A DNA stretch of 64,000 bases. It comes from a virus. This document shows, one piece after another, positions 30,989 through 61,049 of the stretch (positions within the stretch are counted from its first letter, which is position 1; every line of letters starts with the position of its first letter). The position numbers and the translations under genes are program-made. The notes beneath the pieces were generated by a model, which was not told the DNA's origin, made no database searches, and saw only the letters and a list, made by a program, of their open reading frames with translations. The stretch lies in the UHGV virus genome UHGV-1363143; one strand, written 5' to 3'.

Positions 30989-31000
30989 TCGCCATAGTTA

Positions 31001-35915: not shown

Positions 35916-35990
<75 letters not shown>

Positions 35991-37090: not shown

Positions 37091-37169
37091 ATAATTTGTG
37101 CTATCTCTTTTAGCTTGTACTTCGCCAAGGATGATAGCTATCCTTATCTGTACAAATTACAGATTTCTC

Positions 37170-37240
37170 TGGTGCAGATTGCTGGAATCGAACCAACCCT
37201 TATAATCTTATAGAAAACGCTCTACCTTGAGCTAATCTGC
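37170..37240 (-). tRNA. tRNA-like gene with intact acceptor, D- and T-arms but no foldable canonical anticodon arm
   Basis: Acceptor GCAGAUU/AAUCUGC plus ACCA, D-arm GCUC-AAGGUA-GAGC, T-arm GUUGG-UUCGAUU-CCAGC. The anticodon region UUUUCUAUAAGAUUAUAAGG contains a UAUAAG duplication, and no 5-bp stem with a 7-nt loop can be formed. Confidence 0.4.
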
Positions 37241-38269
37241 ATATTATATTTCCAGAGCTTTCAGATCCTATCTCTGGTACTCAACTTTTGCAGCATTATT
37301 GATTCTCTGCTTATCCACATTCTCTTGAATGTATTGAGTTATGCCTGCCTTGTTTAATGAGTGGCTTATCTCATCTAATAGTACACTACTCTACACCATT
37401 GATTATATCAACCTTGCGGGCTGTTCAGGCTGCTACCCCTTATACGCTCTCCGATATAGAACAATCAAGCTTTTGCGAAGCTATCATGCGCTTCATTCAC
37501 TTTTCAGTGTGAAGCATTAAGACACTTTCATGCACTACGAGGATGAACTTTCGCTTTTATATAGAATTAATATCTGTAAATTCTTAAATATTGTTTTATT
37601 TCCCAAAACATATAGCTTAAATTCATCATTCATTAAATTTTCAAACTGTAGATGTGTCATCCTATCAGCTCGCTTCCCTTTTGAGGAAGTAAATACTGGA
37701 CACCTACATAGCTTTCACTCAACTAAGTTACTAACTGGTAATAAATCATACTCTAGGATACCTCCGTCTCTCAACTTCTAAGGTCCTATTTCATTTTTAT
37801 TACTGGCCAATGCTCTTGCCTGTTAAACTCGAACTACTAACCTTCTGCTATAAATAGTTTATTTCATTAGTTTTGGTGTGTGCTATCTGATTACCAGTCA
37901 GAAACTCCTTCAGAGAGTATATCCCCTACTTTCTTACCAGCGTTGCCCATAAGCGAGCTTTCGCACCTAACTTATAAAACCTTATCCAATAATCGTCTTT
38001 ATCTCTTCCGCCTACTGAATAACATTTAAATTTATGCAGATTGCTTGAATTAACCTAATATTTCAAGGCGAGAATTTGTTAAATTCCCTTTACGCACATC
38101 ACTGTACGCTATTCATGTCAAGCCATGTTTACTTATTTTTTTTATAGAACCTAGTACAGATTCTTGTATGTAATTCCTACCTCTATTACATACTAGGCTC
38201 TTGCCTACCGATGTTTTCCTTATTTAAAACTAAGTACTGAAAAGAAAACTCATAACCAAAAATCGTACT
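37241..38269 (-). ncRNA. ~1.0-kb ORF-free GC-enriched structured spacer between tRNA-like gene and tRNA-Lys; candidate large ncRNA(s)
   Basis: Only a weak 83-aa plus-strand ORF with no RBS falls here. Composition matches the other large spacer and lies within the tRNA operon. Confidence 0.3.
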
Positions 38270-38345
38270 TGGTGAAGGTAGAAGGGTTTGAACCTTCGGC
38301 CCCAGCATTAAAAGTGCTATGCTCTACCAACTGAGCTATACCTTC
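38270..38345 (-). tRNA. tRNA-Lys (UUU)
   Basis: GAAGGUAUAGCUCAGUUGGUAGAGC..., anticodon loop CUUUUAA, T-loop UUCAAAC, CCA encoded. Confidence 0.9.
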
Positions 38346-38352
38346 ATATTAT

Positions 38353-38429
38353 TGGTAGTGGATATAAGAGTCGAACTTATCACCTTCTGCGTATCAGGCA
38401 GATGCTCTAACCAAATGAGCTAATCCACT
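38353..38429 (-). tRNA. tRNA-Ile (GAU)
   Basis: AGUGGAUUAGCUCAUUUGGUUAGAGC..., anticodon loop CUGAUAC, CCA encoded. Confidence 0.9.
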
Positions 38430-38435
38430 ATATTA

Positions 38436-38520
38436 TGGTGGGAACTGATGGAGTCGAACCACCCGAGCTAAAGCAACAGATTTACAGTCTGCCCCGCTAC
38501 CATCTACGGTATAAATTCCC
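38436..38520 (-). tRNA. tRNA-Tyr (GUA), type II with long variable arm
   Basis: Acceptor GGGAAUU/AGUUCCC, anticodon loop CUGUAAA, long variable arm, T-loop UUCGACU, CCA encoded. Confidence 0.8.
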
Positions 38521-38547
38521 GTATTGACATTGTTAATTGGCTAAATT

Positions 38548-38577
38548 ATTATAATTGTAAATGTACTATACTTACAA
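38548..38577 (-). promoter_or_regulatory. candidate sigma-A-type promoter (TTGTAA, 18-nt spacer, TATAAT) reading into tRNA-Tyr/Ile/Lys
   Basis: Minus strand -35 TTGTAA (plus 38572-38577) and -10 TATAAT (plus 38548-38553), located 30-60 nt upstream of tRNA-Tyr. Confidence 0.35.
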
Positions 38578-38614
38578 AGAACTAGATCAATCTTCGGATT
38601 GGTCTTTTTCTTAT

Positions 38615-38701
38615 TGGCAGGGGCTGTAGGATTCGAACCTACGTGGTGTTGTGCACAATGGTTTTGGAGACCACCGCCCTCGACCTCTAGGCAAAACCCC
38701 T
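38615..38701 (-). tRNA. atypical 87-nt tRNA: type II (long variable arm) architecture but anticodon CCA (Trp reading)
   Basis: Acceptor AGGGGUU/AGCCCCU plus G plus CCA, T-arm GUAGG-UUCGAAU-CCUAC, anticodon stem GUGGU/ACCAU with loop CUCCAAA. A 15-nt extra arm (UGUGCACAACACCAC) follows. Alternatively GUGGU pairs with the distal ACCAC. Confidence 0.45.
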
Positions 38702-38836
38702 GTAAATCTCCCGATTAGTTTAAAGACATTTATGGGACTGGTCATTAGAGAGGTCTTATGTATAAATTAAAACGTTATGCATAAATATATTATGTTAACA
38801 TCTATAAAAAGACTACTGATTTGAAAAACTTTTTTA

Positions 38837-38923
38837 TGGCGGAGAGTCTGGGACTCGAACCCAGAAGCCATTACTGACCAACAGTTTTCAAGACTGTCTG
38901 ACTACCAATTATCACAACTCTCC
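38837..38923 (-). tRNA. tRNA-Ser (UGA), type II
   Basis: Acceptor GGAGAGU/ACUCUCC plus G plus CCA, anticodon arm ACAGU-CUUGAAA-ACUGU, long variable arm, T-loop UUCGAGU. Confidence 0.85.
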
Positions 38924-39021
38924 ATGTTTATAGGAGAAAACGAAATAGGTGATAGGAATTGAACCTACACTTACTGCCATCCCTATCTCTAGCTGGCCTT
39001 GCTTCATTCTCCTGTTGCAAC

Positions 39022-39096
39022 TGGCGGAGGTGGAAGGGATTGAACCTTCGAATGATGGAATCAAAATCCATTGCCTTACCACTTGGCGACACCTCT
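39022..39096 (-). tRNA. tRNA-Gln (UUG)
   Basis: AGAGGUGUCGCCAAGUGGUAAGGC, closely matching the bacterial tRNA-Gln D-arm. Anticodon loop UUUUGAU, T-loop UUCAAUC, A1-C72 mismatch, CCA encoded. Confidence 0.8.
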
Positions 39097-39297
39097 ATAT
39101 AAAATGGCAATTTTACCGTTTGCCAAACGTTCTATGGTTTATACAAAAACTCATATCGTAAAATTTAAACGGGCTTAAGTGCCCTAAATTCTGGCATTTC
39201 ACCACGGGTATTTAGCAACCCAGGATTTTTATTATTGAATCTAATAAATTAAGATCCGTTCTAAGCACTGCAAAAAAATCTTAAAAAAATTTCGCTT

Positions 39298-39373
39298 TGG
39301 TCGGAGTTACAGGACTCGAACCTGTGATCTCATGGTCCCAAACCATGCACCTTACCATCTAGGCCAAACTCCG
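39298..39373 (-). tRNA. tRNA-Pro (UGG)
   Basis: CGGAGUUUGGCCUAGAUGGUAAGG..., anticodon loop UUUGGGA, T-loop UUCGAGU, CCA encoded. Confidence 0.9.
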
Positions 39374-39382
39374 ATATATAAA

Positions 39383-39474
39383 TGGCGGAGGACACAGGAT
39401 TCGAACCTGCGGAGGAACTTTCGTCCCTCGAATGCTTAGCAAGCACCTGCCTTAAACCTCTCGGCCAATCCTCC
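39383..39474 (-). tRNA. tRNA-Ser (GCU), type II
   Basis: Acceptor GGAGGAU/GUCCUCC plus G plus CCA, anticodon loop UUGCUAA, long variable arm CGAGGGACGAAAGUUCCUCCG, T-loop UUCGAAU. Confidence 0.85.
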
Positions 39475-39564
39475 ATATTAATAGCTCATTTTGGTCAGTT
39501 GAGCTAAACTGTAGTCTATAAGACTAAAAAATGAACATTGGAATTTAATATTGAATTGAATTAG

Positions 39565-39641
39565 TGGCGACTCACAAGGGGATCGAACCCTCGACCTCTG
39601 GCGTGACAGGCCAGCACTCTAACCATCTGAGCTAGTGAGCC
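39565..39641 (-). tRNA. tRNA-Asp (GUC)
   Basis: GGCUCACUAGCUCAGAUGGUUAGAG..., anticodon loop CUGUCAC, T-loop UUCGAUC, CCA encoded. Confidence 0.9.
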
Positions 39642-39647
39642 ATATTA

Positions 39648-39736
39648 TGGTGTCGTGAGAAGGATTCGAACCTCCAACCACCTGAGTCTTGTTAATGGAG
39701 CTCCCTCAGTGCGTATACCAATTCCGCCACCACGAC
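39648..39736 (-). tRNA. tRNA-like gene with 18-nt anticodon loop (11-nt insertion); anticodon undetermined
   Basis: Acceptor GUCGUGG/UCACGAC plus A plus CCA, D-arm GCG-GAAUUGGUAUA-CGC, T-arm GGAGG-UUCGAAU-CCUUC. A perfect 5-bp stem CUGAG/CUCAG encloses GGAGCUCCAUUAACAAGA. Confidence 0.4.
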
Positions 39737-42987: not shown

Positions 42988-43551
42988 ATGTTAAATACAG
43001 TTAAAAAGCCATCATTATTATGTAGAGTAGCAATCGGAATTGATAATTTCATAGAGAGACTATTTGCAGTAGAAAGTGATCCTGAATTCGAATTATGCAT
43101 ACCAGATAGTATTCTTCATAGAACTGAACTTATATGTGAATACATTAAAACTGAAAAAGGATATGATTTCGAAGTTGAAGGATTTCTTATGCTTTTATAT
43201 TTAGACTTCATAAAGAATTGTATTAAAAGCTACAATCCACGCAAAGTATTTAAGCAATTAACTAAGGAACACTATCAAGATCAATATTTGACTGCTGTTA
43301 ACTGTGGTGTCCCTGAGATAATACCTATTATTAAATACAGCAAAACTAATCTAGTTATCAGTATGGCCGAAGAAGACGTTAGGAAGGGCCAACTAATACT
43401 AGATGAATTATATGACTTATATGGATATAGAATTCCTTTCTCCAAACTTCTTGAAAACCTATGGATAGGATTCATTGAAGATTACAAAACTGGAGAAAAT
43501 AAAAGAGCTTATTACTCAATAGTAAAAATTCTTAAAGAATGCATTGATTAA
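42988..43551 (+). CDS. hypothetical protein (first gene of plus-strand block)
   Basis: 187-aa ORF with RBS AAAGGGG. Confidence 0.5.
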   Translation: MLNTVKKPSLLCRVAIGIDNFIERLFAVESDPEFELCIPDSILHRTELICEYIKTEKGYDFEVEGFLMLLYLDFIKNCIKSYNPRKVFKQLTKEHYQDQYLTAVNCGVPEIIPIIKYSKTNLVISMAEEDVRKGQLILDELYDLYGYRIPFSKLLENLWIGFIEDYKTGENKRAYYSIVKILKECID

Positions 43552-43665
43552 GCTCCCTTGAATATGCGTTGTATTTTTCGATTCTTTTCGAAAAAACATT
43601 GCTTTTATAATAATTTATAGGTACAATGTAGATACAACGTATATGCAAAAAAGCTTAGGGAGGTA

Positions 43666-44670
43666 ATGTTAATGTCAAAGAATTCTAAGAAGTATGTTTT
43701 AGTACTTGACTTGGGTAAAGGTGTAGCGAAAGGTTTAGGCTGTGAAATCACAGATAGTATACCTAATCCAGAATCATTAAAAAAATCTATGTTTGAAACA
43801 AAGAGTTATGATTTAAATAAAGGTTATACTGAATTACAAGGAAATTCTCATAAAGTAGATTTCAATGGTAGCTCAGTAATTTTAGGTGAACAAGGCGTAG
43901 ATCGTAGCTTTGAAACTAGTAAAACTACTCCACTTCATCAAATGTGTGCTTACACATTAATTAGCCAATATCTTGAACCTGATACTAAGGATAATGAAAT
44001 ATATCTTGTTCTTGCTTGTCCTATAACAGTATTAAAGAGTGATAAAGCTAAGCAAGAATATAAAAACCTTATTAAGGGTGATGGACCTATATCAATAACT
44101 GTTAATGATAAATATTATGAATTTGAAATTAAAGATATCTTAATTAAGGCTGAAAGTTCAGGAGTATTATATTTAATGCCTGAAGAATTTAAAGATAAAA
44201 AAATTCTAGTGGTAGACTTTGGTGGTCTTAATATGACTAATACTATCTTTACTAATGGAGTATGTGTTAATCCTGAAAATGATAGATTTGCTGAAGAATG
44301 GGGATCTGTTGAATTAATCAATAAAGTAAGTAAACACTTAACAGATTATTCTAAAGGTAATATTGTAGATTTCCAAACTTCTGAAGAAGCTTTAAATAGA
44401 GGTCACTTATTAGAATATGGAAAACCTGATTTAGCTTCTACTGAATATATAGAAAGAGCTAAACAAGAGTTTATAGATGACTCTCTTAAAAAATTAGCTA
44501 GACATAATGTAAGAACAAAGAACTTAGATAAAATAATCTATATTGGAGGAACTAGTTCTTACTTAAAAGACCAAATAAAAGCGTTACCTAATGGTCAAAT
44601 CACAGATAATCCTCAATGGTCTTCCGTAGAAGGCTTATTAAAAATCGCTATTAAAAAATATATTAAATAA
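43666..44670 (+). CDS. parM: actin-like ATPase of the ParM/StbA/Alp family (type II partition NTPase)
   Basis: Phosphate-1-like KYVLVLDLGKG, phosphate-2-like LVVDFGGLNMTNTIF, adenosine-like IIYIGGTSSY. The likely start is ATG at 43672, after the AGGGAGG RBS. Confidence 0.65.
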   Translation: MLMSKNSKKYVLVLDLGKGVAKGLGCEITDSIPNPESLKKSMFETKSYDLNKGYTELQGNSHKVDFNGSSVILGEQGVDRSFETSKTTPLHQMCAYTLISQYLEPDTKDNEIYLVLACPITVLKSDKAKQEYKNLIKGDGPISITVNDKYYEFEIKDILIKAESSGVLYLMPEEFKDKKILVVDFGGLNMTNTIFTNGVCVNPENDRFAEEWGSVELINKVSKHLTDYSKGNIVDFQTSEEALNRGHLLEYGKPDLASTEYIERAKQEFIDDSLKKLARHNVRTKNLDKIIYIGGTSSYLKDQIKALPNGQITDNPQWSSVEGLLKIAIKKYIK

Positions 44671-44672
44671 CC

Positions 44673-44990
44673 ATGTCTAAAAGACCAGGCTCATTTGTTT
44701 TCACATTTAGTAAAAAGAACGAAGATGTGAAAAATATCATTGACAATAAAAAGAAATCCGATAAAAATTTTGTAAAAACTGACTACATGTGTGCTGCAGT
44801 TAGATTTTATGAAAAATATAAGGATAACTTTAATGATAACTCTTCTCTTAGCGAGAATGATGTAATAAGAATAGTCAATGAAATATTAAAAAACAATCAA
44901 ATTAGTGTTGATAGTGATGTGAATGTAATTAATACTTCACTTAATTTAAACACAGATCACATATCAGATAGCGATTTAGAGGAAGATTAA
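44673..44990 (+). CDS. small protein immediately downstream of parM-like gene; ParR-like centromere-binding adaptor candidate
   Basis: 105 aa. Sits 2 nt after the parM stop, with a basic N-terminus and an acidic C-terminus. Confidence 0.35.
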   Translation: MSKRPGSFVFTFSKKNEDVKNIIDNKKKSDKNFVKTDYMCAAVRFYEKYKDNFNDNSSLSENDVIRIVNEILKNNQISVDSDVNVINTSLNLNTDHISDSDLEED

Positions 44991-45018
44991 AGCACTGTAT
45001 AATTCAGTGCTTTTTTGA
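44991..45018 (+). terminator. rho-independent terminator (AGCACUG-loop-CAGUGCU then U6)
   Basis: 7-bp stem, 7-nt loop and a T-run directly after the ParR-like stop codon. Confidence 0.6.
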
Positions 45019-45025
45019 TATAATT

Positions 45026-46351
45026 ATGAATAATAGAGAGGTGATAAATGTGGACGAATACTTATTTAGTTTTATTATAGAAAATATAAATAAAGATAAG
45101 GAACTTAAAGAATTTTATGATAAATATTATTATGAATATTCTGAGATACCTTATGAGGATTACATAAAAGAATTATGCATTGATAATCCTGAATTCTTTA
45201 AATCTGAATTTGATGAGCATAGAAAAAAGATTTTAAAAGCCTATATAAACACTCGCTCAAGATTAAATAAAAAAGCGGTAGTTATAGGTAGACTTATAAA
45301 CTTTCCTTTAGCATCTGAATCTAAAAAAACTACCTTGAAATCAATTGTTGACAACGAATTGAAGTTATTACTAATTGAAAATATAAAAGAATTTTTTGAA
45401 GTAAATTCTAAAATCACTGAAAGACCTTTATCTTTAGATGGAATGTACACTACTAAAGAAAAAATGACTTTATATGATGCTGATTCTACATTAGATATTA
45501 ACGATAGAAAAGCCTATATGAGTGAAGAGAAATATAAACGTCAGATAGGCATTGTTCAACCTCTATTCTTTGCAAACCCTACTACTGAAGTAATATTTGT
45601 AAAAAAAGGTGAAAAGTCATATCTTAAGTCAAAATCAATGGATACTAAAGACCAAAAGATAATGGACTTTTTAATAGAAGAATATAAACAAGTAATGTAC
45701 TATCCAGATCAAGTTTTAATTTATCCTATTCATCAAATATCAAAGCTGATATATAACAGAAAGGGTAAACAATATTTAGACTTAACTAGGGATAGATTAG
45801 CTAAAATAGGTAACTTAGGTCAGATAGTTTTTAATGATTCTATAATTAATAAAAAAGATGCACAAGGTAAGTTAATAGATCCTAAAGATAATTACGAAAT
45901 AGTAAGTTTTTTCGATATTCAATTCTTCACTAATGAATTAGGTGTACGTTTTTGTAAAATACTTATGTCTAGATCTATTGAATATGATTTAAAAACTAGC
46001 AATACAATAAAGCTATACAAACATAAGATTGAGCAAATAAAAAATGACTTTACAGCTATCTTTGTAAACTTTATTCAGTCTCAGCGTATTAACTCTTTAA
46101 TTTCTGATGAAGATGAGGCTATAGTACCATATAAAGTAATTAAAACTGGAATAAGACTTCCTAATGCAAGAAGTAAAGTTAAGAATTTAAAAGTAATTGA
46201 AGAATCTTTAGAAGAACTAGTTAATATGAACTTCTTAATTGATTCTTATGAAGTTAAAAATACTTATATTAAATTGCATTTCATACCATTTGGATATATA
46301 GAGCTAAAAGAACTTAAACTTGATTCTAAGGCTAAAGAGTTAGAAATCTAA
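45026..46351 (+). CDS. hypothetical protein upstream of iteron array
   Basis: 441-aa ORF. Confidence 0.5.
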   Translation: MNNREVINVDEYLFSFIIENINKDKELKEFYDKYYYEYSEIPYEDYIKELCIDNPEFFKSEFDEHRKKILKAYINTRSRLNKKAVVIGRLINFPLASESKKTTLKSIVDNELKLLLIENIKEFFEVNSKITERPLSLDGMYTTKEKMTLYDADSTLDINDRKAYMSEEKYKRQIGIVQPLFFANPTTEVIFVKKGEKSYLKSKSMDTKDQKIMDFLIEEYKQVMYYPDQVLIYPIHQISKLIYNRKGKQYLDLTRDRLAKIGNLGQIVFNDSIINKKDAQGKLIDPKDNYEIVSFFDIQFFTNELGVRFCKILMSRSIEYDLKTSNTIKLYKHKIEQIKNDFTAIFVNFIQSQRINSLISDEDEAIVPYKVIKTGIRLPNARSKVKNLKVIEESLEELVNMNFLIDSYEVKNTYIKLHFIPFGYIELKELKLDSKAKELEI

Positions 46352-46371
46352 TTTTCTAGCTCTTTTATTTT
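46336..46371 (+). terminator. rho-independent terminator (9-bp stem AGUUAGAAA/UUUCUAGCU then U-run)
   Basis: Imperfect palindrome overlapping the stop of 45026..46351, followed by tcttttatttttt. Confidence 0.45.
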
Positions 46372-46701
46372 TTAAATTACAGATGCATTTTTTAGGTACT
46401 ATATTTAAATTACAGATGCATTTTTTAGGTACTATATAAAAAAGAGATGCACTTTTTTGGTGCTATATCGACACAGAAGTGCATTTTTTAAGTGCTATAT
46501 TGATACTTTTTTTATAAGTGCATTTTTATCAATTATTTAACCTTTAAAAAGTTTTTTAAAATTTATGATTTTAAAACTAGAGATGCATTTTTTAGGTACT
46601 ATATTAATATAGAAGTGCATTTTTTTGGTGCTATATTAAAACTAGAGATGTATTTTTTAGGTACTATATCAACATAGAAGTGCATTTTTTTGGTGCTATA
46701 T
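46372..46701. repeat. iteron array: ~9 direct repeats of consensus AGA(T/A)GTGCATTTTTT(A/T)GGT(A/G)CTATAT around an AT-rich core; candidate plasmid-type origin or partition centromere
   Basis: A perfect 33-bp tandem duplication at 46372-46404 and 46405-46437. Further copies lie at ~46438, 46473, 46514 (partial), 46579, 46609, 46644 and 46674. Two alternating subtypes (..gatgcattttttaggtactatat and ..gaagtgcatttttttggtgctatat) recur at about 31-35 bp spacing, flanking the AT-rich tract 46531-46578. Confidence 0.75.
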
Positions 46702-46787
46702 TAATACTTTTCACAAATTAGACATAATAATTTTTTTAATATAAACTATGTTTATAATTAGAATATTATGTGAAAGGAGTGAAAACT

Positions 46788-47786
46788 ATGGTAACAAAAC
46801 AGATGATTAAATTAAGTAAGCAACTACTTTTAGACTTATCTTCTCTTAAATATACTCAAGATGACAGTGTAAACCTTCAACCAGAGTATAGAGATTATAA
46901 GAAATGTAGTGCTAATTGTCCGTTTTATAAAAATAAGGATGTTTCATTGTTTTGTCAAAAAGAGTGTGTATTTGTTTTATCTACTAGCTCATTAATAAAG
47001 CCTAGAGAAAACATACTTACTTATACTCAAATAAAACAGTTATTATATTATAACTCAACTGTATTTGAAAACAATGGAATAACCATAGAGCTTTCACATA
47101 AGGATGTAGCTAAAGCTATTAACTGTTCGGAAAGAACAGCTAGAGATAATATTAATGCTTTAGTTAAAGCTGGTTACATTGTAATATCTTCATATAATGA
47201 TAATAAATACAAGGTGTTTATCAGGGATTATCATAAGTATCATGAAAATGGTAATCGTGGACATCTTTATTTGAGCAATAAATGTTTTAAAGCTTTAATA
47301 AAAATAGATAACATAAATACATTAAGATTAGCTTTAGTTGGATTAGTGCGTCTTGATGATATGCGTGCATCTAAAGATAAAAATCCTTCTAAAGAATTAT
47401 CTTATAAAGCTCTAATTAACTTATTGCCTTCAAATATAACTTGCCCTAAGCAAATAGTTAAAATATTTACTAAGGCTAAAGAATTATTTAAAATGACATT
47501 CAAAGACGAATCTATATCTATATCTTTTAATAAGGACATAGATTCATTGGCATACGCAAAAAGCCTTAATAAAAATAATAAGAAGGCATTATCTAAATTC
47601 CTTAAAAGATTTGAATTAACTGTAACTAATAAGGATAAAGAAGATCTTCTTCAAATGTCTATCCAATATAATATTCATATTGTAACAAAGGCGTTTAATT
47701 ATATAAAGGATAAAAATCCTGATGAGTTAGGATCATATTTAAGAACAGTTATAAGAAATAACTTCAATTCTTTAATTTCTTGTTAA
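46788..47786 (+). CDS. helix-turn-helix DNA-binding protein immediately downstream of iterons; candidate replication initiator or iteron-binding protein
   Basis: HTH segment LSHKDVAKAINCSERTARDNINALVKAGYIV. The ATG at 46788 has RBS GAAAGGAG at spacing 8, whereas the ORF-track start at 46770 is GTG. A terminator follows at 47790-47816. Confidence 0.45.
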   Translation: MVTKQMIKLSKQLLLDLSSLKYTQDDSVNLQPEYRDYKKCSANCPFYKNKDVSLFCQKECVFVLSTSSLIKPRENILTYTQIKQLLYYNSTVFENNGITIELSHKDVAKAINCSERTARDNINALVKAGYIVISSYNDNKYKVFIRDYHKYHENGNRGHLYLSNKCFKALIKIDNINTLRLALVGLVRLDDMRASKDKNPSKELSYKALINLLPSNITCPKQIVKIFTKAKELFKMTFKDESISISFNKDIDSLAYAKSLNKNNKKALSKFLKRFELTVTNKDKEDLLQMSIQYNIHIVTKAFNYIKDKNPDELGSYLRTVIRNNFNSLISC

Positions 47787-47789
47787 ATT

Positions 47790-47816
47790 AGGGCTTTTTT
47801 GTTGTGCCCTTTTTTA
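47790..47816 (+). terminator. rho-independent terminator (AGGGC-loop-GCCCU then U-run)
   Basis: agggcttttttgttgtgcccttttttatt directly after the stop codon. Confidence 0.55.
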
Positions 47817-48216
47817 TTATTTTTACCTATTTGGGATATAAAACTAATGATAGCTATTACATTTTATATTATTTTTGTTGATAACCTGTTGATAATATGT
47901 GAGTAATAGCTTTTTTATTCACAAGTCAAGGAAAAAAAGATTGTTAGTAATTAAAAATAAACTGTTTATAAGTAAAAAAAATTTGTTACTAAAATTTTTT
48001 AATATCTTAATAACAAAAAAATATATGTATATAGTTTTAAAAAGATGTGTTGATAAGAATTTATTAAATCGAAGTTAATTCCATGAGTCAAGTATTTATC
48101 CTATCTAACACATCCTTGAAGCATAAATTTATTAACACTAACTTCTCTCCTATAACTTCTGTTTTATAACCTCTGCTCTATTAACGACTGGAGAGATAAC
48201 TACTAATATATATATG

Positions 48217-48399
48217 TCATAATTTTTTAAGTATGCTTCTATTTATTTTATTTAAAGTATTCCCTACTGTTTTTCTTTTAGCTCTTTTGATAATCTTTTT
48301 GGGATTACCAGTAAGTACAGTTTCTATATCATTAATTGTAGAAGCTATTTTATTAATAGTTCTAGATGTATCGTAAAAAACTTTAGATATTTTTTTCAC
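48217..48399 (-). CDS. small basic protein (GTG start), divergent from parA
   Basis: 60 aa, Lys/Arg-rich. An AAGGAGAG RBS sits 6 nt upstream of the GTG. Confidence 0.35.
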   Translation of the reverse strand: MKKISKVFYDTSRTINKIASTINDIETVLTGNPKKIIKRAKRKTVGNTLNKINRSILKKL

Positions 48400-48538
48400 T
48401 TAATACTCTCCTTTCATATTAAGGTTTTAATATTCAAAATTCAAGATATTTTATAATATATTTTCAATTTTAAATATTATTAAATTTCCTATTAGTAAAT
48501 CTAATATACTCTATATTATAGAATAAAATAGATTTTCG

Positions 48539-48566
48539 TTGTATATCGAAAAAAATGTGCTATAAT
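48539..48566 (+). promoter_or_regulatory. candidate promoter for parA operon (TTGTAT, 16-nt spacer, extended -10 TGcTATAAT)
   Basis: -35 at 48539-48544, TG motif, and -10 TATAAT at 48561-48566. The parA start lies about 30 nt downstream. Confidence 0.45.
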
Positions 48567-48595
48567 TTTCTTATAACTATAAAAAAGGGAGATGA

Positions 48596-49411
48596 ATGTT
48601 TATGCCTAAAACTATAGCTATAGGTACCTTTAAAGGTGGAGTTGGAAAAACAATGACTACTTTTAATTTAGCAGGTATATTAGCTGAGAGAAATTACAAA
48701 GTATTGTGTATAGATGTAGATCCTCAAGGAAATCTAACAAGTAATCTTGGAATTAATAGAGCTAATAATGGCTTAGTTGGTGTTGAAGCTATATTTAGTG
48801 AAAACTCTACAGTTAATCTTAACGATATAATAATAAAAAGTCCAATAGAGCAACTACCAACATTAGATCTTTTACCTAGCACAGTTTTGCTTCATAAATC
48901 TGAATTATTTATGGCATTAGCTCCTGCTAGAGAACTAAAGTTAAAGTATTTCATGATGGATAATAAAGAGGTTCTTGATAACTACGATTATATTTTAATA
49001 GATACTAATCCTAGTATGGGATATCTTAATCAAAATGCATTTGTAGTTGCAGATAAAATTATTATGCCAGCAACTGCAGATTTATCAGATTTAGATGGAA
49101 TACATCTATTCTGTGCATTATGGGATGATTTAAGAGAAAAATTACGTATAGACGATAATATAGCTGCTGTAGTTACTACTAAGAATGACAAAAGAGTTTC
49201 TCTTGATAGAAGTTTTATTGAACATATTAAAACTACAGAAGATAATGAAGATATAGCAGAATTATTAGTAGATACAATAATTCCTGTCAATGTTACTCTT
49301 AAGGAAGCAGCAATGAGCTGTCAACCTATTAATCTTTATAATAAGAATTGTATTGGTTATCAAGCTTATAAAAAATTGGTAGATGAGCTATTCGAAAGAG
49401 GTGTATTCTAA
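48596..49411 (+). CDS. parA: ParA/Soj-family partition ATPase (type I)
   Basis: Deviant Walker A KGGVGKT in IAIGTFKGGVGKTMTTFNLA. About 270 aa, typical of small ParA. Confidence 0.8.
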   Translation: MFMPKTIAIGTFKGGVGKTMTTFNLAGILAERNYKVLCIDVDPQGNLTSNLGINRANNGLVGVEAIFSENSTVNLNDIIIKSPIEQLPTLDLLPSTVLLHKSELFMALAPARELKLKYFMMDNKEVLDNYDYILIDTNPSMGYLNQNAFVVADKIIMPATADLSDLDGIHLFCALWDDLREKLRIDDNIAAVVTTKNDKRVSLDRSFIEHIKTTEDNEDIAELLVDTIIPVNVTLKEAAMSCQPINLYNKNCIGYQAYKKLVDELFERGVF

Positions 49412-49917
49412 TGGCCAGAAAGTCTACAGGTAATAAATTCAGTTCCATTGCTAATTCAACTCCTCGTAATTTACCATTTAGAGAAACTCTTACCATAGAA
49501 GATAGAATTGCATATGATAAGCTTAGTCCTGAGGAACAAAGTGGATATGAGCAGTTTTGTATTGATAATGTAAATAATAATAGTATTGAAGATTATCTTC
49601 ACTATAGTAAATCAAAGTCTACTCCTAAAATAGTAACTAAAGCTACTAAAAATACAACTAAACCTATTGAACAGCCAGTAGAAATAAATATATCAGAAAC
49701 TAATATAAAAACTGATATAACTGATTATAATCCAGTTCAAAGTGTTCAAAGTATGATAAATAAAAACTTATCTATTGAAGAAGAAGCTGGTAAAAATATA
49801 TCTGTTTATTTAAGTGCTGAAGCATTAAACGTAGTTTCTGTATATATGAAAAAGCATAAAATTAAAAACAGATCTAAATTAATAGAAACAGTATTATTAA
49901 GCGTACTTAAAGAATAA
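49411..49917 (+). CDS. ParB/ParG-like centromere-binding partner of ParA (candidate)
   Basis: Translationally coupled through a TAATG overlap with parA. 168 aa with a basic N-terminal tail. Confidence 0.4.
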   Translation: MARKSTGNKFSSIANSTPRNLPFRETLTIEDRIAYDKLSPEEQSGYEQFCIDNVNNNSIEDYLHYSKSKSTPKIVTKATKNTTKPIEQPVEINISETNIKTDITDYNPVQSVQSMINKNLSIEEEAGKNISVYLSAEALNVVSVYMKKHKIKNRSKLIETVLLSVLKE

Positions 49918-54259: not shown

Positions 54260-54709
54260 CTATTTATATCTAACTTCGTATCCTAAATTAGCGTAATAAT
54301 CTCCTAGTATTTTTCTATGGCAGTGTTCTAAACTACCGCAGAAACATACTAATAGAACATCTACACCTTGATTTAATAGCTCTATTATCCTAGCAAGATT
54401 AACTTGCATATAATTTTCATACATTTGTGCTATGAATTGCTCATAATATAATGACCACCAGGTAGCCCCTGGTCCTAGTTCTTTTAATCTAGTTTCTTCT
54501 TCTAAAGTGAACTCATTATATTTCCATCTAGTTATATATTTCTTATATAATTCAGGAGATGGAGCCAATTCAGGAACGTGTACCATTCCATATAACTCAC
54601 AATTTACTTTCATAGGATTTCTAACTATAAACAATTTCTTTGTATAGTTATCTTTATAATCCTTATATTTAGATAAAGAGCATAATTGAATATGCCCTTT
54701 ACTCATTTC
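54260..54709 (-). CDS. DUF488-family protein
   Basis: LAPSPELYKKYITRWKYNEF...VLLVCFCGSLEHCHRKIL matches the DUF488 pattern. The start is set at the internal MSKGH, which has a GGAGG RBS. Confidence 0.5.
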   Translation of the reverse strand, partial: EMSKGHIQLCSLSKYKDYKDNYTKKLFIVRNPMKVNCELYGMVHVPELAPSPELYKKYITRWKYNEFTLEEETRLKELGPGATWWSLYYEQFIAQMYENYMQVNLARIIELLNQGVDVLLVCFCGSLEHCHRKILGDYYANLGYEVRYK

Positions 54710-55031
54710 TTTCCTCCAATAAAAAATCATTTTGTAGATATTCTTGAATACATACTGGATACCAGCTATGTCCAAACTCTGGATTATTCTCGGCGTTTTC
54801 TTGAATGTAATTATCATAAGATTTAATTAACTTTATTAGAGTTTGTATATTTAAATCATCTATAGTCCTGTAATTCATCTTATAAGAATCACAGTCTTTA
54901 CATAAAATGTCTTGTGGATTGCCATTCTTATCAAAATTACAGCAATCAGGTGAACATGGAATTCTTTCGTCAAGCTCACACTTTTTAGTACACGATGAAC
55001 ATTCTTTTCCACACCATTCTGGATGAGTCAT
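54699..55031 (-). CDS. Cys-rich small protein
   Basis: 110 aa, with CGKECSSCTKKCELDERIPCSPDCC... Confidence 0.45.
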   Translation of the reverse strand: MTHPEWCGKECSSCTKKCELDERIPCSPDCCNFDKNGNPQDILCKDCDSYKMNYRTIDDLNIQTLIKLIKSYDNYIQENAENNPEFGHSWYPVCIQEYLQNDFLLEERNE

Positions 55032-55377: not shown

Positions 55378-55713
55378 TTATCTGTTTTCTAATAAATCGT
55401 GTATTCTGCTAGAAATCTCTTCCTGAATATAATTAGATAATTGGTCATCTGAGCACATATCGTCAGCTATAGTATCAATATCATCTTCAGATATTTCATC
55501 AGCATCTCCTTCATTAAGGTTATTTTCTATATATTGTTCTATTGAATAAACATAACCATCATATAGATTAGCTCTTTCAGGTTCATATGGAATAACTGTA
55601 ATATTTTCGCCTCCACAATAAACACATTTCTTTGGAGGTGTATCACTTCCACCATCAGCTATAATAAAAGTGCCTTCGCACCCTTGTTCATTACAAGCTA
55701 CATCATAGTTCAT
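55378..55713 (-). CDS. zinc-ribbon acidic protein
   Basis: 111-aa ORF with CNEQGCEG...CVYCGGEN. Confidence 0.45.
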   Translation of the reverse strand: MNYDVACNEQGCEGTFIIADGGSDTPPKKCVYCGGENITVIPYEPERANLYDGYVYSIEQYIENNLNEGDADEISEDDIDTIADDMCSDDQLSNYIQEEISSRIHDLLENR

Positions 55714-56246: not shown

Positions 56247-56567
56247 TTAATCATATAAATCGTCTAAACTTTCAATACCATCATCTAAATTTGGTATAAC
56301 ATCTTCTATATCATCCTCTGTTCCTATATATCTACCTTGTAAATAGTAATGGTTCGCTGGGCCTTCTTGTACTCCAAGCTCTTCTAATAAGCATGCACAG
56401 CAAAAATACTTTTCTTTGAAAAGATAATCTGAACCGTGCCCATTACATCCGCAACACTTGAAAGAATGTAAATGACATATATTTTTTTCTGGTTTTTTAG
56501 TTTTAAAGACGCATTCCCATTCATTTCTATTATTATTATGAGAACAATTTTCACAACTTTTTAACAT
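56247..56567 (-). CDS. Cys-rich small protein
   Basis: 106-aa ORF with CENCSH...CHLHSFKCCGCNGHG...CCAC. Confidence 0.45.
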   Translation of the reverse strand: MLKSCENCSHNNNRNEWECVFKTKKPEKNICHLHSFKCCGCNGHGSDYLFKEKYFCCACLLEELGVQEGPANHYYLQGRYIGTEDDIEDVIPNLDDGIESLDDLYD

Positions 56568-56681
56568 TCTAATTCCTCCGAATTAATCTAATATATTTGT
56601 TTTAAAAATATTGCAAATTACACTTCTTTATTTAAATTATGTAAATTAAGAAATAAAGAATACTGAAGTACAAGGGAAATA

Positions 56682-56957
56682 TTAAGCAACTTCTCTTGTA
56701 TCAATATTCTTCCACTTATTCTTATTACTAAAGCCACCACGTAGATGACGAATACTTTTATTGTAATCTAAGATTATTCTGGCTCCTTTAGCCATTGTTG
56801 GATTAATTGATTTAATCCTTTGAGTTAAATCTCTATGTACTGTACTTGTGCTCACTCCAAAGTACTTAGCAACAGTTCTAAGAGTTGACTCTGAACTAAT
56901 CATAAATTCAGCCTCAGCTCTAACTCTTTTTTCTATTCTTTCTTGTAATTTACTCAT
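56682..56957 (-). CDS. spoIIID: SpoIIID-like sporulation transcriptional regulator homologue
   Basis: VAKYFGVSTSTVHRDLTQRIKSINPTMAKGARIILDYNKSIRHLRGG is collinear with B. subtilis SpoIIID (FGVSKSTVHKDLTERL...ILDYHKSIRHLRGG). Confidence 0.7.
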   Translation of the reverse strand: MSKLQERIEKRVRAEAEFMISSESTLRTVAKYFGVSTSTVHRDLTQRIKSINPTMAKGARIILDYNKSIRHLRGGFSNKNKWKNIDTREVA

Positions 56958-57000
56958 ATATAAAACATCACCTTTCTTATAAAAAATAAAAACCTCTAGA

Positions 57001-57480
57001 TTAGTCTTCTAGAGGCACGTATATGTTATATTTAAAATCTTTTGGTATAGTTCTGTTTACTAATTTACTTTCAAATTTAGAAGAACAATAAATTTTACAT
57101 GAAAGGACTTTGTTCATTTCTGTGTCATAACTGCTATAAGTTTTTATCGCAATGTTAAGCTCTCGTATTTTATCTGCAAATTCCTTTCCTTCATTAAAAC
57201 TATTTGCTGTAACATCAAATATCCATAGCTTATCTCTTTCAGATTTTTTGATAAGTATTCCTGGTAAATAAGTACCTATAAATGTTGCTACACACATAGC
57301 TATAATACTTTCTAAACTATTATTTTTAGTAAGTTGTACTATAGCAACTAGATAGAAAAATGTAGAGAATGCACTAAGCAATGCTCCTAAGAAATATCTT
57401 TCCTTATTGATATAAATAGTCTTAGCTGTACTAAGTCCATTATCAAGGATCTTCAATATAAATGCTATTAATGGTGCCAT
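57001..57480 (-). CDS. membrane protein (2-3 TM plus cytosolic domain)
   Basis: 159-aa ORF. Confidence 0.45.
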   Translation of the reverse strand: MAPLIAFILKILDNGLSTAKTIYINKERYFLGALLSAFSTFFYLVAIVQLTKNNSLESIIAMCVATFIGTYLPGILIKKSERDKLWIFDVTANSFNEGKEFADKIRELNIAIKTYSSYDTEMNKVLSCKIYCSSKFESKLVNRTIPKDFKYNIYVPLED

Positions 57481-57483
57481 AAA

Positions 57484-58083
57484 TTAAAACTCCCTTTGTG
57501 CAAATTGTAATTTATGTTTATAATAAAGACTTCTCATGATTAGAGCAGTCTTAATTGAAACCATGTTTTCATCAATAAATTTTAATGCATCATTCATTTT
57601 AATTACTATAGGCTCTATATCTTCATGGCCTTCATTATGTTCTGTAGAGATCTCTCCAGTTACATTTGCAATATAAACCGCGCATGATTCATCACTCATA
57701 CCTACAGATGTATAGCTTGGCTTAAGTATTTGTTCTATACAATAACAAGATAAACCAACTTCTTCATAAAGTTCTCTTTTAACTGCAGCATTAGTTGATT
57801 CACCTACATCTACTAATCCAGCAGGAAATTCATAAATATAGTCATCTATCGCTGGTCTATACTGCTTTATCAACACAAGGTCTGAATTATCGAATATAGG
57901 CACTATAAGTACTGCATCAGCCTTATTATGGTCTTTAGATATACATGATAGTCTTCCTTTATTTTTCCTTCTTGAAGCGACATAATAAGGGTATATATCT
58001 CCTGTTTGATCATTAGTAACTTCTATGTTATATAAATTAAGAAAGTTATTATCTGTTATTTTTTTTACTCTATTTACTGACAT
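57484..58083 (-). CDS. NUDIX hydrolase (ADP-ribose pyrophosphatase-like)
   Basis: Nudix box GLVDVGESTNAAVKRELYEEVGL. The start is set at the internal ATG 58083, which has an AAGGAG RBS. The upstream extension overlaps ORF 58112..58339. Confidence 0.65.
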   Translation of the reverse strand: MSVNRVKKITDNNFLNLYNIEVTNDQTGDIYPYYVASRRKNKGRLSCISKDHNKADAVLIVPIFDNSDLVLIKQYRPAIDDYIYEFPAGLVDVGESTNAAVKRELYEEVGLSCYCIEQILKPSYTSVGMSDESCAVYIANVTGEISTEHNEGHEDIEPIVIKMNDALKFIDENMVSIKTALIMRSLYYKHKLQFAQREF

Positions 58084-58111
58084 GTTAATTGCTCCTTTAG
58101 AGCCAGCGGCC

Positions 58112-58339
58112 CTATAGCTGAATACTATTTTTGGCCGCAATAGCTTCTTCTTTTGAATTATATAGATTGTCCCAATCAATATTGTAGTAATTAGACCATG
58201 GCCCAATCTCTACATGCATTCCAGGACATTCTCCCATTTCTGTTGTAGCTAAAACGTCTTTAGCTTTTTCAACAGTTAAATCTGTAAAATCAAATGTAGT
58301 AACTTCTCCACATTTTTTACATTTACCTAATACGTACAT
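58112..58339 (-). CDS. small zinc-ribbon protein
   Basis: 75-aa ORF with CKKCGEV...ECPG. Confidence 0.4.
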   Translation of the reverse strand: MYVLGKCKKCGEVTTFDFTDLTVEKAKDVLATTEMGECPGMHVEIGPWSNYYNIDWDNLYNSKEEAIAAKNSIQL

Positions 58340-58366
58340 AACTAATCTCCTTGTCTACAAGTATTT

Positions 58367-58744
58367 TTACAATCTTTTAGTTGCTCTAACTAAATTACTA
58401 TATGTCCAAGGCTGTTTTTCTTCTTGATAGCTTATACTTAATTCTTGGCTACATTTAATACATAAACAGCCTTCTCTATTCCAAGGTTTTTGAGAGATGT
58501 TCGCTCCGCATCTCTCACAACCTAATTCTGCAGATGCATATTTTCGGCCCATTTTTATATATTTTCTATTTTGTTTATTGCCAACTAAAACTAATGAATC
58601 AGTTGTGATGGTAGAGAATGTTCCTTTATCCATATCCCAAGGATAGTTCTTTTTAATTAATAAATTTCTAAGACTGAATATATTTATTCTAGCTCTAGGA
58701 TTACTAAATATCATATCTTGGGTTAGATCCACATTGCTTTTCAT
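58367..58744 (-). CDS. hypothetical Cys-rich protein
   Basis: 125-aa ORF with CERCGAN...CLCIKC. Confidence 0.45.
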   Translation of the reverse strand: MKSNVDLTQDMIFSNPRARINIFSLRNLLIKKNYPWDMDKGTFSTITTDSLVLVGNKQNRKYIKMGRKYASAELGCERCGANISQKPWNREGCLCIKCSQELSISYQEEKQPWTYSNLVRATKRL

Positions 58745-59511
58745 TACTTTTTACATTTTAAAAAGCTCTTAACTTTTTTAAAAAAGCTCTTATTTTCCTG
58801 AGTATTTATATTAATAGTTCCTCCTCTAAGAGTAAAGTTATTATTTGATTCATCAAGATTAGCAAGTTGAGCCTTCAATTCTTCTATTGTTTCAGGAGTT
58901 GATATATGTACATCTATAGCCTTCTTTCTCTTGACTTTCATTTCATTAACAAGTTTATCAAGAGTTAAATCGCAATATTCATCTTCCCAATCTCCTAATA
59001 CATAGAACCTATCTACAATACTTCCAGTCTTTTTATCTTGGAATGTTCCAAATAGTATTGGATCCTTTTCTCTTCTTTCCTTCTCTATTTGCTTTTCTAT
59101 CTTTCCTGTGTAGTCAGTAAAGATAATATATAGTTGATCGAACTTATCTTTAGTGGCTTCAATAACATCAACTATTTCATCTGGAATTTCTCTTTCATAG
59201 TTCTCTAATTCGATTATCTTCACAACGTCATTTGCTACATTATCAATATAATCTTCTATATCATCCTTATAGATGAATGTATTAATACCTAATGAAACAA
59301 TTTCTCTTTCCTTTTCGATTGTTTCTAAGTGAAACATTAATTTCTTAGCACCTTTAACTTGTCCAGTTGTTACATACTTTTTCATTAATGTAAGACAATT
59401 AGAATATATTTTCTTTAACTCATCATCTGTTATTTCAGATTTTTTAGTTTTTAATAATTCAAAATACTCTTTTGGTGTTATTTCTTTTGTACCATTATTT
59501 TTGCTACTCAT
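58744..59511 (-). CDS. hypothetical protein
   Basis: 255-aa ORF. Confidence 0.5.
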   Translation of the reverse strand: MSSKNNGTKEITPKEYFELLKTKKSEITDDELKKIYSNCLTLMKKYVTTGQVKGAKKLMFHLETIEKEREIVSLGINTFIYKDDIEDYIDNVANDVVKIIELENYEREIPDEIVDVIEATKDKFDQLYIIFTDYTGKIEKQIEKERREKDPILFGTFQDKKTGSIVDRFYVLGDWEDEYCDLTLDKLVNEMKVKRKKAIDVHISTPETIEELKAQLANLDESNNNFTLRGGTININTQENKSFFKKVKSFLKCKK

Positions 59512-59589
59512 CGTATTTTCTCTCCTTTTGTATTGTCCATAAATATATTATGCTCATTACACAAAAAAGCATAATGAGCACAACATTTT

Positions 59590-59853
59590 TTAATATTCAT
59601 TTGGGAGTAGGATTTTAGTATGACGATCTGCGAATTCTGTTATGATATAAAATTTAACACCTTCTCTATCTATATATACACTGAATACATTATCAGTTTT
59701 GTTAGAGATAGCTTCGTTATTCATATTAATGGACTCTTGATCTATCAAACCAAAATCTCCTTTTCTATGATTTTCTAATGATGTCATAACATCATCTTTG
59801 TTTAAGGTGGTATTAGCACCTGGAGTAATTAGTATAGAGCCTAATTTAAACAT
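59590..59853 (-). CDS. hypothetical protein
   Basis: 87-aa ORF. Confidence 0.4.
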   Translation of the reverse strand: MFKLGSILITPGANTTLNKDDVMTSLENHRKGDFGLIDQESINMNNEAISNKTDNVFSVYIDREGVKFYIITEFADRHTKILLPNEY

Positions 59854-59983
59854 AATGATTCCTCCTAGATTGTTTTCTCCATAGTCTTTACTATGGCTAT
59901 TAAAAACATCATAACTATAACGAATATTATTACAGTTATTTTTTCTTGAGGACTTTTATTTCTTATATGCTCCATAGATCCTC

Positions 59984-60400
59984 CTAAGCCTTAAGATTAT
60001 CTCTTACTCTCATAAGAATTTTACCTAACTTATTTTGACCTATACCAGCACATACGCCCCAGTATCTATCATTCCATGTGTTGCCTTCAATAAGTTCAGC
60101 GTCACCTGTATCTAATAGCCGTTTGGCCAGCACAGGATTTTGTTCGAACTTAGCCTGTACTATTTCGTACATAATGCCATCTTTTACTTCTTCCCAGTCT
60201 TTTCTTAAAAGAACTCTTCTACCTAATCTCTTAGCATCGCTAGGATTTAAGTCTGCAAATTCTTTTCTACCTTCCCCAAATATTTTTTGAGCATGAAAAG
60301 CAGCTTCTGCATTTTTGTACGTTATATTTTTAAAAGTAATATCTGAATTATAGAAATTACTTAAAAAACGATATTTACCATTAAATGATGCTATTATCAT
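59984..60400 (-). CDS. NADAR-family (YbiA/DUF1768-like) ADP-ribose-processing protein
   Basis: FLSNFYNSDITFKNITYKNAEAAFHAQKI...AKRLGRRVLLRKDWEEVKDGIMYEIVQAKFEQNPVLAKRLLDTGDAELIEGNTWNDRYWG matches the NADAR pattern. Confidence 0.65.
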   Translation of the reverse strand: MIIASFNGKYRFLSNFYNSDITFKNITYKNAEAAFHAQKIFGEGRKEFADLNPSDAKRLGRRVLLRKDWEEVKDGIMYEIVQAKFEQNPVLAKRLLDTGDAELIEGNTWNDRYWGVCAGIGQNKLGKILMRVRDNLKA

Positions 60401-60868
60401 CTAATTGCCTCCTTCGTATTTATATAATGTTATGTGCACTGGCCAGAGAGGATTGTCAAAATATTCTTCAATCAATCTGTATACTTCTGACCAGTTAGCT
60501 CCGCCTCGTCCACATCCTATTCCATAAGGCATAGCAATCGAATAATTATGTCGAATTGCATAATCTCTTAACTTCATAAAACATGTTTCTAAGGCTTCTA
60601 TGTTTGTATATTGTTTGTCCCATCCATAAGAGTCTTGTCCAAATATATTACATATAACTTTGCCATTAGTCATAGTTAACATTTGTATTTTGCCAAGCAA
60701 TTCTGATCCCATAGTTTTGCAATACTTTTCGTAATTAGGGAATATTGATGGATAAGTTTCTCTAAGTTCTTTTGCTACACCTGAACCCATTACACCTTTA
60801 CAGTTAACTTGATGGGCGATAATATTCTCTGTAGCTTTAACTACATTTCCTTCAATAATATTAATCAT
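60401..60868 (-). CDS. Macro-domain protein (ADP-ribose binding/hydrolase fold)
   Basis: IIEGNVVKATENIIAHQVNCKGVMGSGVAKEL has a macro-domain-like N-terminus. The start is set at the internal MINII. The track alternative begins at 60937. Confidence 0.6.
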   Translation of the reverse strand: MINIIEGNVVKATENIIAHQVNCKGVMGSGVAKELRETYPSIFPNYEKYCKTMGSELLGKIQMLTMTNGKVICNIFGQDSYGWDKQYTNIEALETCFMKLRDYAIRHNYSIAMPYGIGCGRGGANWSEVYRLIEEYFDNPLWPVHITLYKYEGGN

Positions 60869-61049
60869 CTTCTTTTTCCTTTTCTGTTTCCTGTTTATCA
60901 GTTTCTGGTTGGCAAGCTCTACACCTACCCATATCATCTAAATTTTTGTTATTACAAAATCTAGAACAACATTTACATCGTGTAAGCATAATTCCTCCTA
61001 TAATATATATTATGTTATATATTCAATTAGAAACTATAATAGAAAAATA

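Follow-up and report, generated by a model that had tools for sequence, protein, structure and literature searches.

SpoIIID is a small DNA-binding regulator of the mother cell in spore-forming bacteria and governs the switch from sigma-E to sigma-K. In our study, a gene of the SpoIIID family was examined in the virus genome UHGV-1363143, of which a stretch of 64,000 nucleotides (the window) was analysed. The gene was found on the minus strand at 56682..56957, where the open reading frame list gives a protein of 91 amino acids that starts with ATG and contains exactly the residues quoted in the sequence-only reading. A phage SpoIIID has been on record since phi3626 in 2002, followed by a gut-phage catalogue in 2023; the existence of the present gene is unsurprising to a specialist and leaves the knowledge in kind unchanged. 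Specific to the present case are the gut phage carrier of about 240 kb, the deep and conserved SpoIIID clade and the fixed membrane-protein partner.

Phage-encoded SpoIIID paralogues were described in phi3626 (ORF42, annotated as [quoted passage not shown]), vB_CpeS-CP51 (gp43) and phi6013, and belong, like the protein of the window, to PHROG 11726. The copies share a score below the equivalog cut-off for SpoIIID (84-106 bits), and an effect on sporulation was proposed for them and never demonstrated. Their identity to the protein of the window was only 38-39%. The three Clostridium phages are temperate siphoviruses of 33-39 kb with integrases, whereas the window phage is about 240 kb long. 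Their gene is part of a replication/regulation module, with a sporulation-type sigma factor close by, whereas in the window the neighbour is a membrane protein of 159 amino acids. CP51 and phi6013 carry the SpoIIID-like gene together with the sigma factor (PMC5027557).

Extra SpoIIID-family genes are also present on large plasmids of C. botulinum and C. sporogenes (pCLD, pCLJ, pCLK), which are extrachromosomal elements of spore formers of 57-275 kb with one or two annotated spoIIID copies (PMC2092393). The plasmid copies resemble the present gene in that they often share the replicon with ParM/Alp-type partition actins and PspA. They differ in that they are 44-48% identical to the window protein and that their carriers are annotated as plasmids, not phages. 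In pCLD the spoIIID gene is followed by a gene for a protein with an RNA polymerase alpha-CTD domain and is not preceded by a 159-amino-acid membrane protein. Two C. botulinum plasmids of about 57 kb (NZ_CP014173.1 and NZ_CP014218.1) each combine an Alp12-like ParM (about 47% identity) with a gene of the SpoIIID type (44%), two functions that are also paired in the window. These two plasmids may be phage-plasmids.

The same setting and the same hypothesis, that gut phages of spore formers carry regulatory sporulation genes, are found in Schwartz 2023 in mBio. There spoIIID is explicitly listed among the sporulation genes that are enriched in gut phages, human-gut UViGs among them, whose predicted hosts are spore formers (PMC10294663); in the available text, the present jumbo-phage lineage and its conserved gene pair are not singled out. 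Among phage sporulation genes, only the sigma factors (sigF/sigG-like, Schwartz 2022) were tested experimentally (PMC12713726). For gut Firmicutes, spore formation is central both to persisting and to being transmitted, and it is also a refuge from phages; phage-borne sporulation regulators are a recognised possible route to counter or exploit this refuge. The gene of the window is a reasonable candidate for testing the function of a phage SpoIIID for the first time.

The SpoIIID-family protein and its phage clade

The protein was found to be a full-length member of Pfam family PF12116, against which it scored 94.4 bits (E=4.7e-27; gathering score 27 bits) with residues 6-84 on positions 2-80 of the 82-position profile. 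The B. subtilis SpoIIID structure (PDB 2L0K) was matched with E=5.7e-21, residues 8-85 against 5-82, and PHROG 11726, named "sporulation stage III protein D", with E=3.7e-24, residues 5-84 on positions 8-87 of 89. The sequence-only reading of this stretch had stated that the product aligns with SpoIIID along its whole length and had suggested a profile search as a check; the PF12116 and 2L0K matches agree with this statement. The two alignments it had quoted, FGVSTSTVHRDLTQRI/FGVSKSTVHKDLTERL for the helix-turn-helix and ILDYNKSIRHLRGG/ILDYHKSIRHLRGG for the C-terminal region, were seen again in the 2L0K alignment.

Compared with B. subtilis SpoIIID (2L0K, PF12116, TIGR02844), the protein is of nearly the same length (91 vs 93 amino acids), can be aligned from end to end and is 45% identical to the representative of the B. 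subtilis type. The helix-turn-helix occupies approximately residues 23-49, and the C-terminal extension or basic region consists of ILDYNKSIRHLRGG followed by K79, K81 and K83. The recognition helix is STSTVHRDLTQRI in the phage protein and SKSTVHKDLTERL in B. subtilis SpoIIID, and both proteins contain the common pattern S-x-STVH(K/R)DLT-x-R. The C-terminal segment ILDY(N/H)KSIRHLRGG and the alternating lysines were also conserved in the 2L0K alignment. The proteins differ in the N-terminal helix and the extreme C-terminus, which are diverged in the phage protein, and in a lysine of the helix-turn-helix that is substituted with threonine.

The residues that were invariant in the phage clade include S36, S38, T39, V40, H41, D43, L44 and T45 in the recognition helix and Y65, N66, K67, S68, R70, H71, R73, G74, G75 and K79 in the C-terminal part. 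In the AlphaFold model made with a 6-sequence alignment, three N-terminal and two C-terminal helices were present (overall pLDDT 60), the C-terminal helices lying at 53-74 and 79-90 with pLDDT <50. Work by Himes in 2010 and Chen in 2014 is said to have found that the C-terminal helical extension or basic region of SpoIIID adds to the DNA binding of the monomer. The combination of helix-turn-helix and basic region in SpoIIID is described in PMC3789822. The predicted product is, by these comparisons, a SpoIIID-family protein in which both DNA-binding regions are conserved; it is small and basic and probably a monomer.

Membership of the family does not extend to equivalog status. Against NCBIfam TIGR02844, the cut-off of which is 111.5 bits for the SpoIIID equivalog, the protein scored 89.0 bits. 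In the panel that we compared, representatives of the chromosomal type scored 118-153 bits, the phage clade 89-98, CP51 106 and phi3626 84. The canonical order of Peptidase_M23 (SpoIIQ), SpoIIID and MreB/Mbl was observed in a Lentibacillus locus (L022). This spoIIQ-spoIIID-mbl context was not present around the phage gene, whose neighbours are a NUDIX gene, the 159-amino-acid membrane protein and small open reading frames in an accessory region, and regulation by sigma-E is not evident there, unlike in B. subtilis. The score below the equivalog cut-off and the missing chromosomal context therefore identify the gene as a mobile-element paralogue and not a host orthologue. The earlier claim that the gene encodes a homologue of SpoIIID stood at the level of the family.

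Among 1.84 billion representatives, searched exhaustively with HMMER, 1,720 relatives were found, none of them nearer than about 50% identity. In a scan of 185,579 bacterial and archaeal species, each represented by one genome, no host SpoIIID above 48% identity was found, and neither was a prophage or plasmid copy of the phage clade, so that the scan yielded no direct assignment of a host. The best-scoring match of the exhaustive search (P0008) was a protein of 337 amino acids with five tandem SpoIIID-like domains, and several other matches contained two such domains; these tandem repeats are unlike the monomeric single-domain protein.

In the neighbour-joining tree, the window protein and six relatives formed a monophyletic group apart from all other sequences. 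The six relatives come from contigs of 226-241 kb and share 68-91% identity with the protein of the window; in the tree set, identity to sequences outside the clade had a median of 45% and a maximum of 58%. Within the clade dN/dS was 0.11-0.18. A recently captured host gene or a host orthologue was ruled out by the score of 89 vs 111.5 bits, the ceiling of about 50% identity and the lack of chromosomal context. The gene is an old, selectively maintained paralogue of a mobile element with a DNA-binding surface of the host type.

The gene directly 5' of the SpoIIID-like gene, at 57001..57480 on the minus strand, encodes a predicted membrane protein of 159 amino acids, and was found immediately before the SpoIIID-like gene in all three of the diverged lineages examined (P0001, P0004 and P0006). 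The phage SpoIIID is thus kept in the long term under purifying selection, as a fixed pair with the small membrane protein. Three orthologues of the membrane protein gave a weak match below the threshold to DUF5698, a UPF0316-type N-terminal domain, at the same position (E=0.004, 0.038 and 0.13). A PDB search with the 159-amino-acid protein found no relative.

The carrier phage and its probable host

An identical SpoIIID-like protein was found on 11 contigs of human-gut metagenomes, the longest of which is 238 kb. The window corresponds to about 7.6-71.6 kb of an ENA scaffold of 238,204 bp from the human gut. A relative of 241,249 bp in IMG/VR (UViG 3300014583_000001) contains proteins that are 89-95% identical, in the same gene order. 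About 30 kb past the end of the window, this relative contains a portal gene (E=8.5e-56) and a large terminase gene (E=9.6e-25); it also encodes an amidase endolysin (E=8.5e-70), a phage-type DNA polymerase and GroEL. The virion hallmark genes were thus observed in the close relative of 241 kb and not in the contig of the window itself. The SpoIIID of the lineage of this relative, which is 80% identical, has the nr title [quoted passage not shown]. From the portal, terminase, endolysin and Caudoviricetes label it follows that the element is a very large tailed phage, which agrees with the earlier claim that the gene is phage-borne.

The genes in the window were found to encode gyrase-like topoisomerase II subunits, UvrD and SNF2 helicases, two RecA-like proteins, Rad52, a single-stranded DNA-binding protein (SSB), a uracil-DNA glycosylase (UDG), thymidylate kinase, ClpP, a ClpX-like ATPase and a cell-wall hydrolase, and the same phage genome encodes Mu Gam. 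The SpoIIID-like gene sits in an accessory, non-structural region of the phage of about 240 kb.

A non-phage origin, in which the window would come from a large plasmid or from a bacterial chromosome and the gene would be a plasmid or host copy of spoIIID, is in our view highly improbable. No virion gene lies in the window, partition genes of the plasmid type (an Alp12-like actin and ParA) are present, and large C. botulinum and C. sporogenes plasmids contain annotated spoIIID copies, all of which would fit such an origin. The portal, large terminase and amidase endolysin of the syntenic 241-kb relative, its entry in IMG/VR and the Caudoviricetes label of its SpoIIID in nr speak against a plasmid or chromosome. 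No ribosomal or core housekeeping operons were found among the annotated genes, the spoIIQ-spoIIID-mbl context is missing, and a phage-plasmid lifestyle would agree with the main proposal made below.

The phage is without a close cultured relative. When 19 kb of the window were compared by megablast with the phages of GenBank, no match was obtained, and a scan of IMG/VR with SpoIIID peptide patterns also gave none. The best matches of an AAA protein were mycobacteriophage proteins with 29% identity.

The phage comes from the human gut, its GC content is 30%, it encodes the anaerobic ribonucleotide reductase NrdD/NrdG, and the phage relatives of its endolysin are nearly all from Bacillus and Paenibacillus phages. 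A plasmid-type partition island with actin-like and ParA-family genes extends over 42988..49917 on the plus strand. The actin-like protein (43666..44670) resembles Alp12 from plasmid pE88 of Clostridium tetani (PDB 4APW, E=9.6e-86), and its homologues of 45-51% identity come from Clostridium plasmids in 33 of 44 records. An ATPase of the ParA family follows at 48596..49411. These features make it plausible that the host is a low-GC anaerobic, Clostridium-like gut Firmicute and that the phage lives as an episome, in the manner of a phage-plasmid.

SpoIIID-family genes were also found in chromosomal contexts of metagenome-assembled genomes (MAGs) labelled Haloplasmataceae/Acholeplasmatales. In one of these (L024) the gene adjoins a Peptidase_M23 gene and ATP synthase, and in three others (L025, L029 and L032) it adjoins UPF0029, an ABC transporter and the CCA-adding enzyme. 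These lineages are not known to form endospores. Therefore the gene alone is no proof of an endospore-forming host. The sequence-only reading had held that the gene pins the host to endospore-forming Firmicutes; a Clostridium-like host remains plausible on the GC content, NrdD/NrdG, the Alp12-type actin and the kinship of the endolysin, and the gene by itself does not pin it.

Possible roles of the protein

The DNA-contacting segments of the phage protein are nearly identical to those of the host SpoIIID, and because of this the protein most likely binds boxes of the SpoIIID type. Tentatively, and with a little less than even confidence, we propose that it acts on host promoters that depend on sigma-E and sigma-K and thereby alters the development of the mother cell to the benefit of the phage. 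On this proposal the protein would bind WWRRACAR-Y boxes, idealised as TAGGACAAGC, as a monomer. The phage would be present in the sporulating cell, possibly as an episome partitioned by Alp12 and ParA, and a phage promoter would supply SpoIIID activity at the wrong time or dose, uncoupled from the developmental timing of the host. The mimic would then repress or activate host promoters dependent on sigma-E/sigma-K, which are its most likely targets, and mother-cell development would be shifted or derailed in favour of the phage. The host SpoIIID both represses and activates such promoters (PMC517825, PMC3789822). Any effect of the phage gene on sporulation is purely inferential, and whether it would be a block or a promotion is not deducible from sequence.

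Several observations weigh against an action on mother-cell promoters. The identity to any chromosomal SpoIIID is only about 45-50% and the TIGR02844 score is below the cut-off, and therefore the DNA specificity or the partners of the protein may have drifted. In this phage the lysine of the recognition region is substituted with threonine, VS(T)STVH, and is kept in the other members of the clade. In phi3626 and CP51 spoIIID travels with a sigma factor; among the genes annotated in the approximately 115 of 240 kb inspected here, neither a sigma-70-family domain nor any gene for sporulation, a sigma factor included, was present, the part of the window at 32-46 kb being scanned only in part. The proposal also presumes a host that is able to sporulate. 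A review of 2025 counts phage spoIIID as not experimentally validated (PMC12713726).

The upstream sequence counts on the same side, since the gene lies directly behind a terminator-like hairpin and is without a recognisable promoter of the sigma-70 type. The terminator scan placed the hairpin and its T-run, GCCTCTAGA-loop-TCTAGAGGT, at 56981..57016 on the minus strand. There it overlaps the membrane-protein gene at its stop codon, and about 25 nucleotides separate it from the start codon of the SpoIIID-like gene. The fold of the hairpin was -15.8 kcal/mol (z=-2.6), and the alignment showed that it is kept in all three diverged lineages. A scan for sigma-70-type promoters between the hairpin and the start codon found none, and inspection by eye of the sequence upstream of the gene gave no convincing -35/-10 spacing of the sigma-E or sigma-K type. 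Direct reading of the sequence showed a Shine-Dalgarno-like GAAAGGTGA at 56968..56976 on the minus strand, about 10 nucleotides 5' of the ATG, and a purine-rich block is kept at this position in related phages.

A more specific form of the proposal is that the phage is a phage-plasmid of about 240 kb, which Alp12 and ParA would partition as an episome in a Clostridium-like spore former, and that the pair of membrane protein and SpoIIID is a module which couples the fate of the phage to the mother-cell programme. We consider it unlikely. Such a module might hold back lysis, redirect sigma-E/sigma-K expression or make it more likely that phage DNA is carried into the spore, and the gene would then represent a hijack of developmental timing by a jumbo phage and not a generic regulator.

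It is also possible, with lower confidence than the action on host promoters, that a SpoIIID-fold helix-turn-helix protein domesticated by the phage in ancient times regulates genes of the phage, for example the accessory genes nearby through a non-coding element next to the gene, and has no specific role in sporulation. This element of 53 nucleotides (56629..56681, minus strand) lies directly 3' of the SpoIIID-like stop codon. The genes downstream of the SpoIIID-like gene vary among the lineages, and the element was conserved in the alignment despite these differences; it may serve these genes as a promoter or operator. No second copy of it was found in the window, and it gave no significant RNA fold (z=0.13) and no Rfam match. 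Besides the element and the fixed synteny with the membrane protein, a phage-internal role is favoured by the deep, monophyletic, phage-only clade without a close bacterial relative and by the score below the equivalog cut-off, as in other copies of mobile elements. Bacillus phage YungSlug of the Herelleviridae has a homologue, adjoining lysis genes, with the plain annotation of a DNA-binding protein, which also fits.

The search for SpoIIID boxes in the window argues the other way. According to what is reported of Halberg and Kroos 1994, the degenerate box consensus is WWRRACARNY. It was found 68 times in the window, against 69 expected, and is not enriched. The idealised high-affinity site for the monomeric protein is TAGGACAAGC (PMC11180830), of which the window contains one exact copy, antisense inside the Alp12-like gene at 44014..44023; a single site proves nothing. 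No good SpoIIID box was kept in all lineages in the alignment of the 53-nucleotide element.

The shorter GGACAAG was in excess in the window (12 observed, 3.8 expected), and AGGACAAGC was observed 4 times against 0.2 expected, which ranks first among 1,260 9-mers of the same composition. All nine sense-strand coding occurrences of GGACAAG(C) were found in codon phase 0, encoding Gly-Gln-x as in the GQAT motif of ClpP. Because these occurrences share the phase and encode Gly-Gln-x, the enrichment is a codon artefact, and sites of self-regulation or decoy sites were rejected as its cause. On whether the protein binds such boxes, the counts in the window are uninformative. A purely phage-internal role would also need no near-perfect recognition helix of the host type, and spoIIID homologues are statistically tied to phages of spore formers (PMC10294663).

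The protein might, alternatively, be an architectural nucleoid-associated protein that coats or bends phage or host DNA at many sites of low specificity, which we hold to be quite unlikely. B. subtilis SpoIIID is present at many chromosomal sites without a transcriptional effect, and an architectural role was proposed for it (PMC517825). The small, basic, probably monomeric nature of the phage protein would suit this role, and the phage also encodes a protein of the HU type (Bac_DNA_binding) and other DNA-handling proteins. The HU homologue is, by the same token, already there for such functions, and the strongly conserved residues of the recognition helix point to sequence-specific contacts.

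Neighbouring genes and other elements of the phage

The NUDIX hydrolase gene (57484..58206, minus strand; Pfam PF00293) completes the order NUDIX, 159-amino-acid protein and SpoIIID, and was found ahead of the membrane-protein gene in two of the three lineages; its link to the pair is one of context, by gene order only. It is part of an upstream cluster of genes for handling ADP-ribose at 57484..60937 (minus strand), which also contains Macro (60401..60937) and NADAR (59984..60400). The cluster may counter ADP-ribosylating defence systems. In sister phages, a P-type cation ATPase gene was found immediately upstream of the pair of 159-amino-acid protein and SpoIIID (L018 4804..9960; L015-L017 1..2957). 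In one sister lineage PspA and two TerD genes are also upstream of the pair. The ATPase, PspA and TerD genes are all absent from the phage of the window.

The SpoIIID-like gene had earlier been placed in a block of small cysteine-rich proteins. Cysteine made up 9.4% of the small open reading frame at 56247..56567, about 10% of that at 54699..55031, 4.5% of that at 55378..55713 and 4% of that at 58367..58744, with a mean of 1.5% for the window, and the frame at 58112..58339 is also rich in cysteine. Several small frames with 4-10% cysteine thus lie nearby, whereas the two genes immediately upstream are not cysteine-rich.

Some genes of the phage or its relatives were found to be split. In the IMG/VR relative, an HNH-type homing endonuclease gene (phrog_4645) splits the NAD-dependent DNA ligase (L012 16841..20149) and a gene of the same type splits the large terminase (L037 13506..16686). 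The UvrD-type helicase of the window is split at 3782..6258 (minus strand) into the open reading frames 5563..6258 and 3782..5008, with a gap of 554 nucleotides. The gap gave no Rfam match at gathering level; the split could reflect an intron or the disruption of the gene.

The ClpP gene (31261..31875) and the gene for the ClpX-like AAA+ ATPase (28124..29371) lie within 28124..31875 on the minus strand together with Band_7 and PAPS-reductase-like proteins. A nicotinamide riboside transporter of the PnuC type adjoins a NadR-like AAA_28 protein (window 304..984, minus strand; L007 10682..11743). Near these genes Mu Gam, DnaG primase, HU, NrdD/NrdG and a toxin of the PemK type were found.

The window also contains an array of 14 tRNA genes at 35926..39736 on the minus strand, where the GC content rises to 38%; one odd tRNA-Tyr has the anticodon ATA. 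Two structured RNAs were found inside the array, both on the minus strand. A full-length GOLLD RNA is present at 37263..37708 (RF02032, 171.8 bits with a gathering score of 150, model positions 1-416 of 416), and a skipping-rope RNA is present at 36258..36340 (RF02924, 58.2 bits with a gathering score of 36.7).

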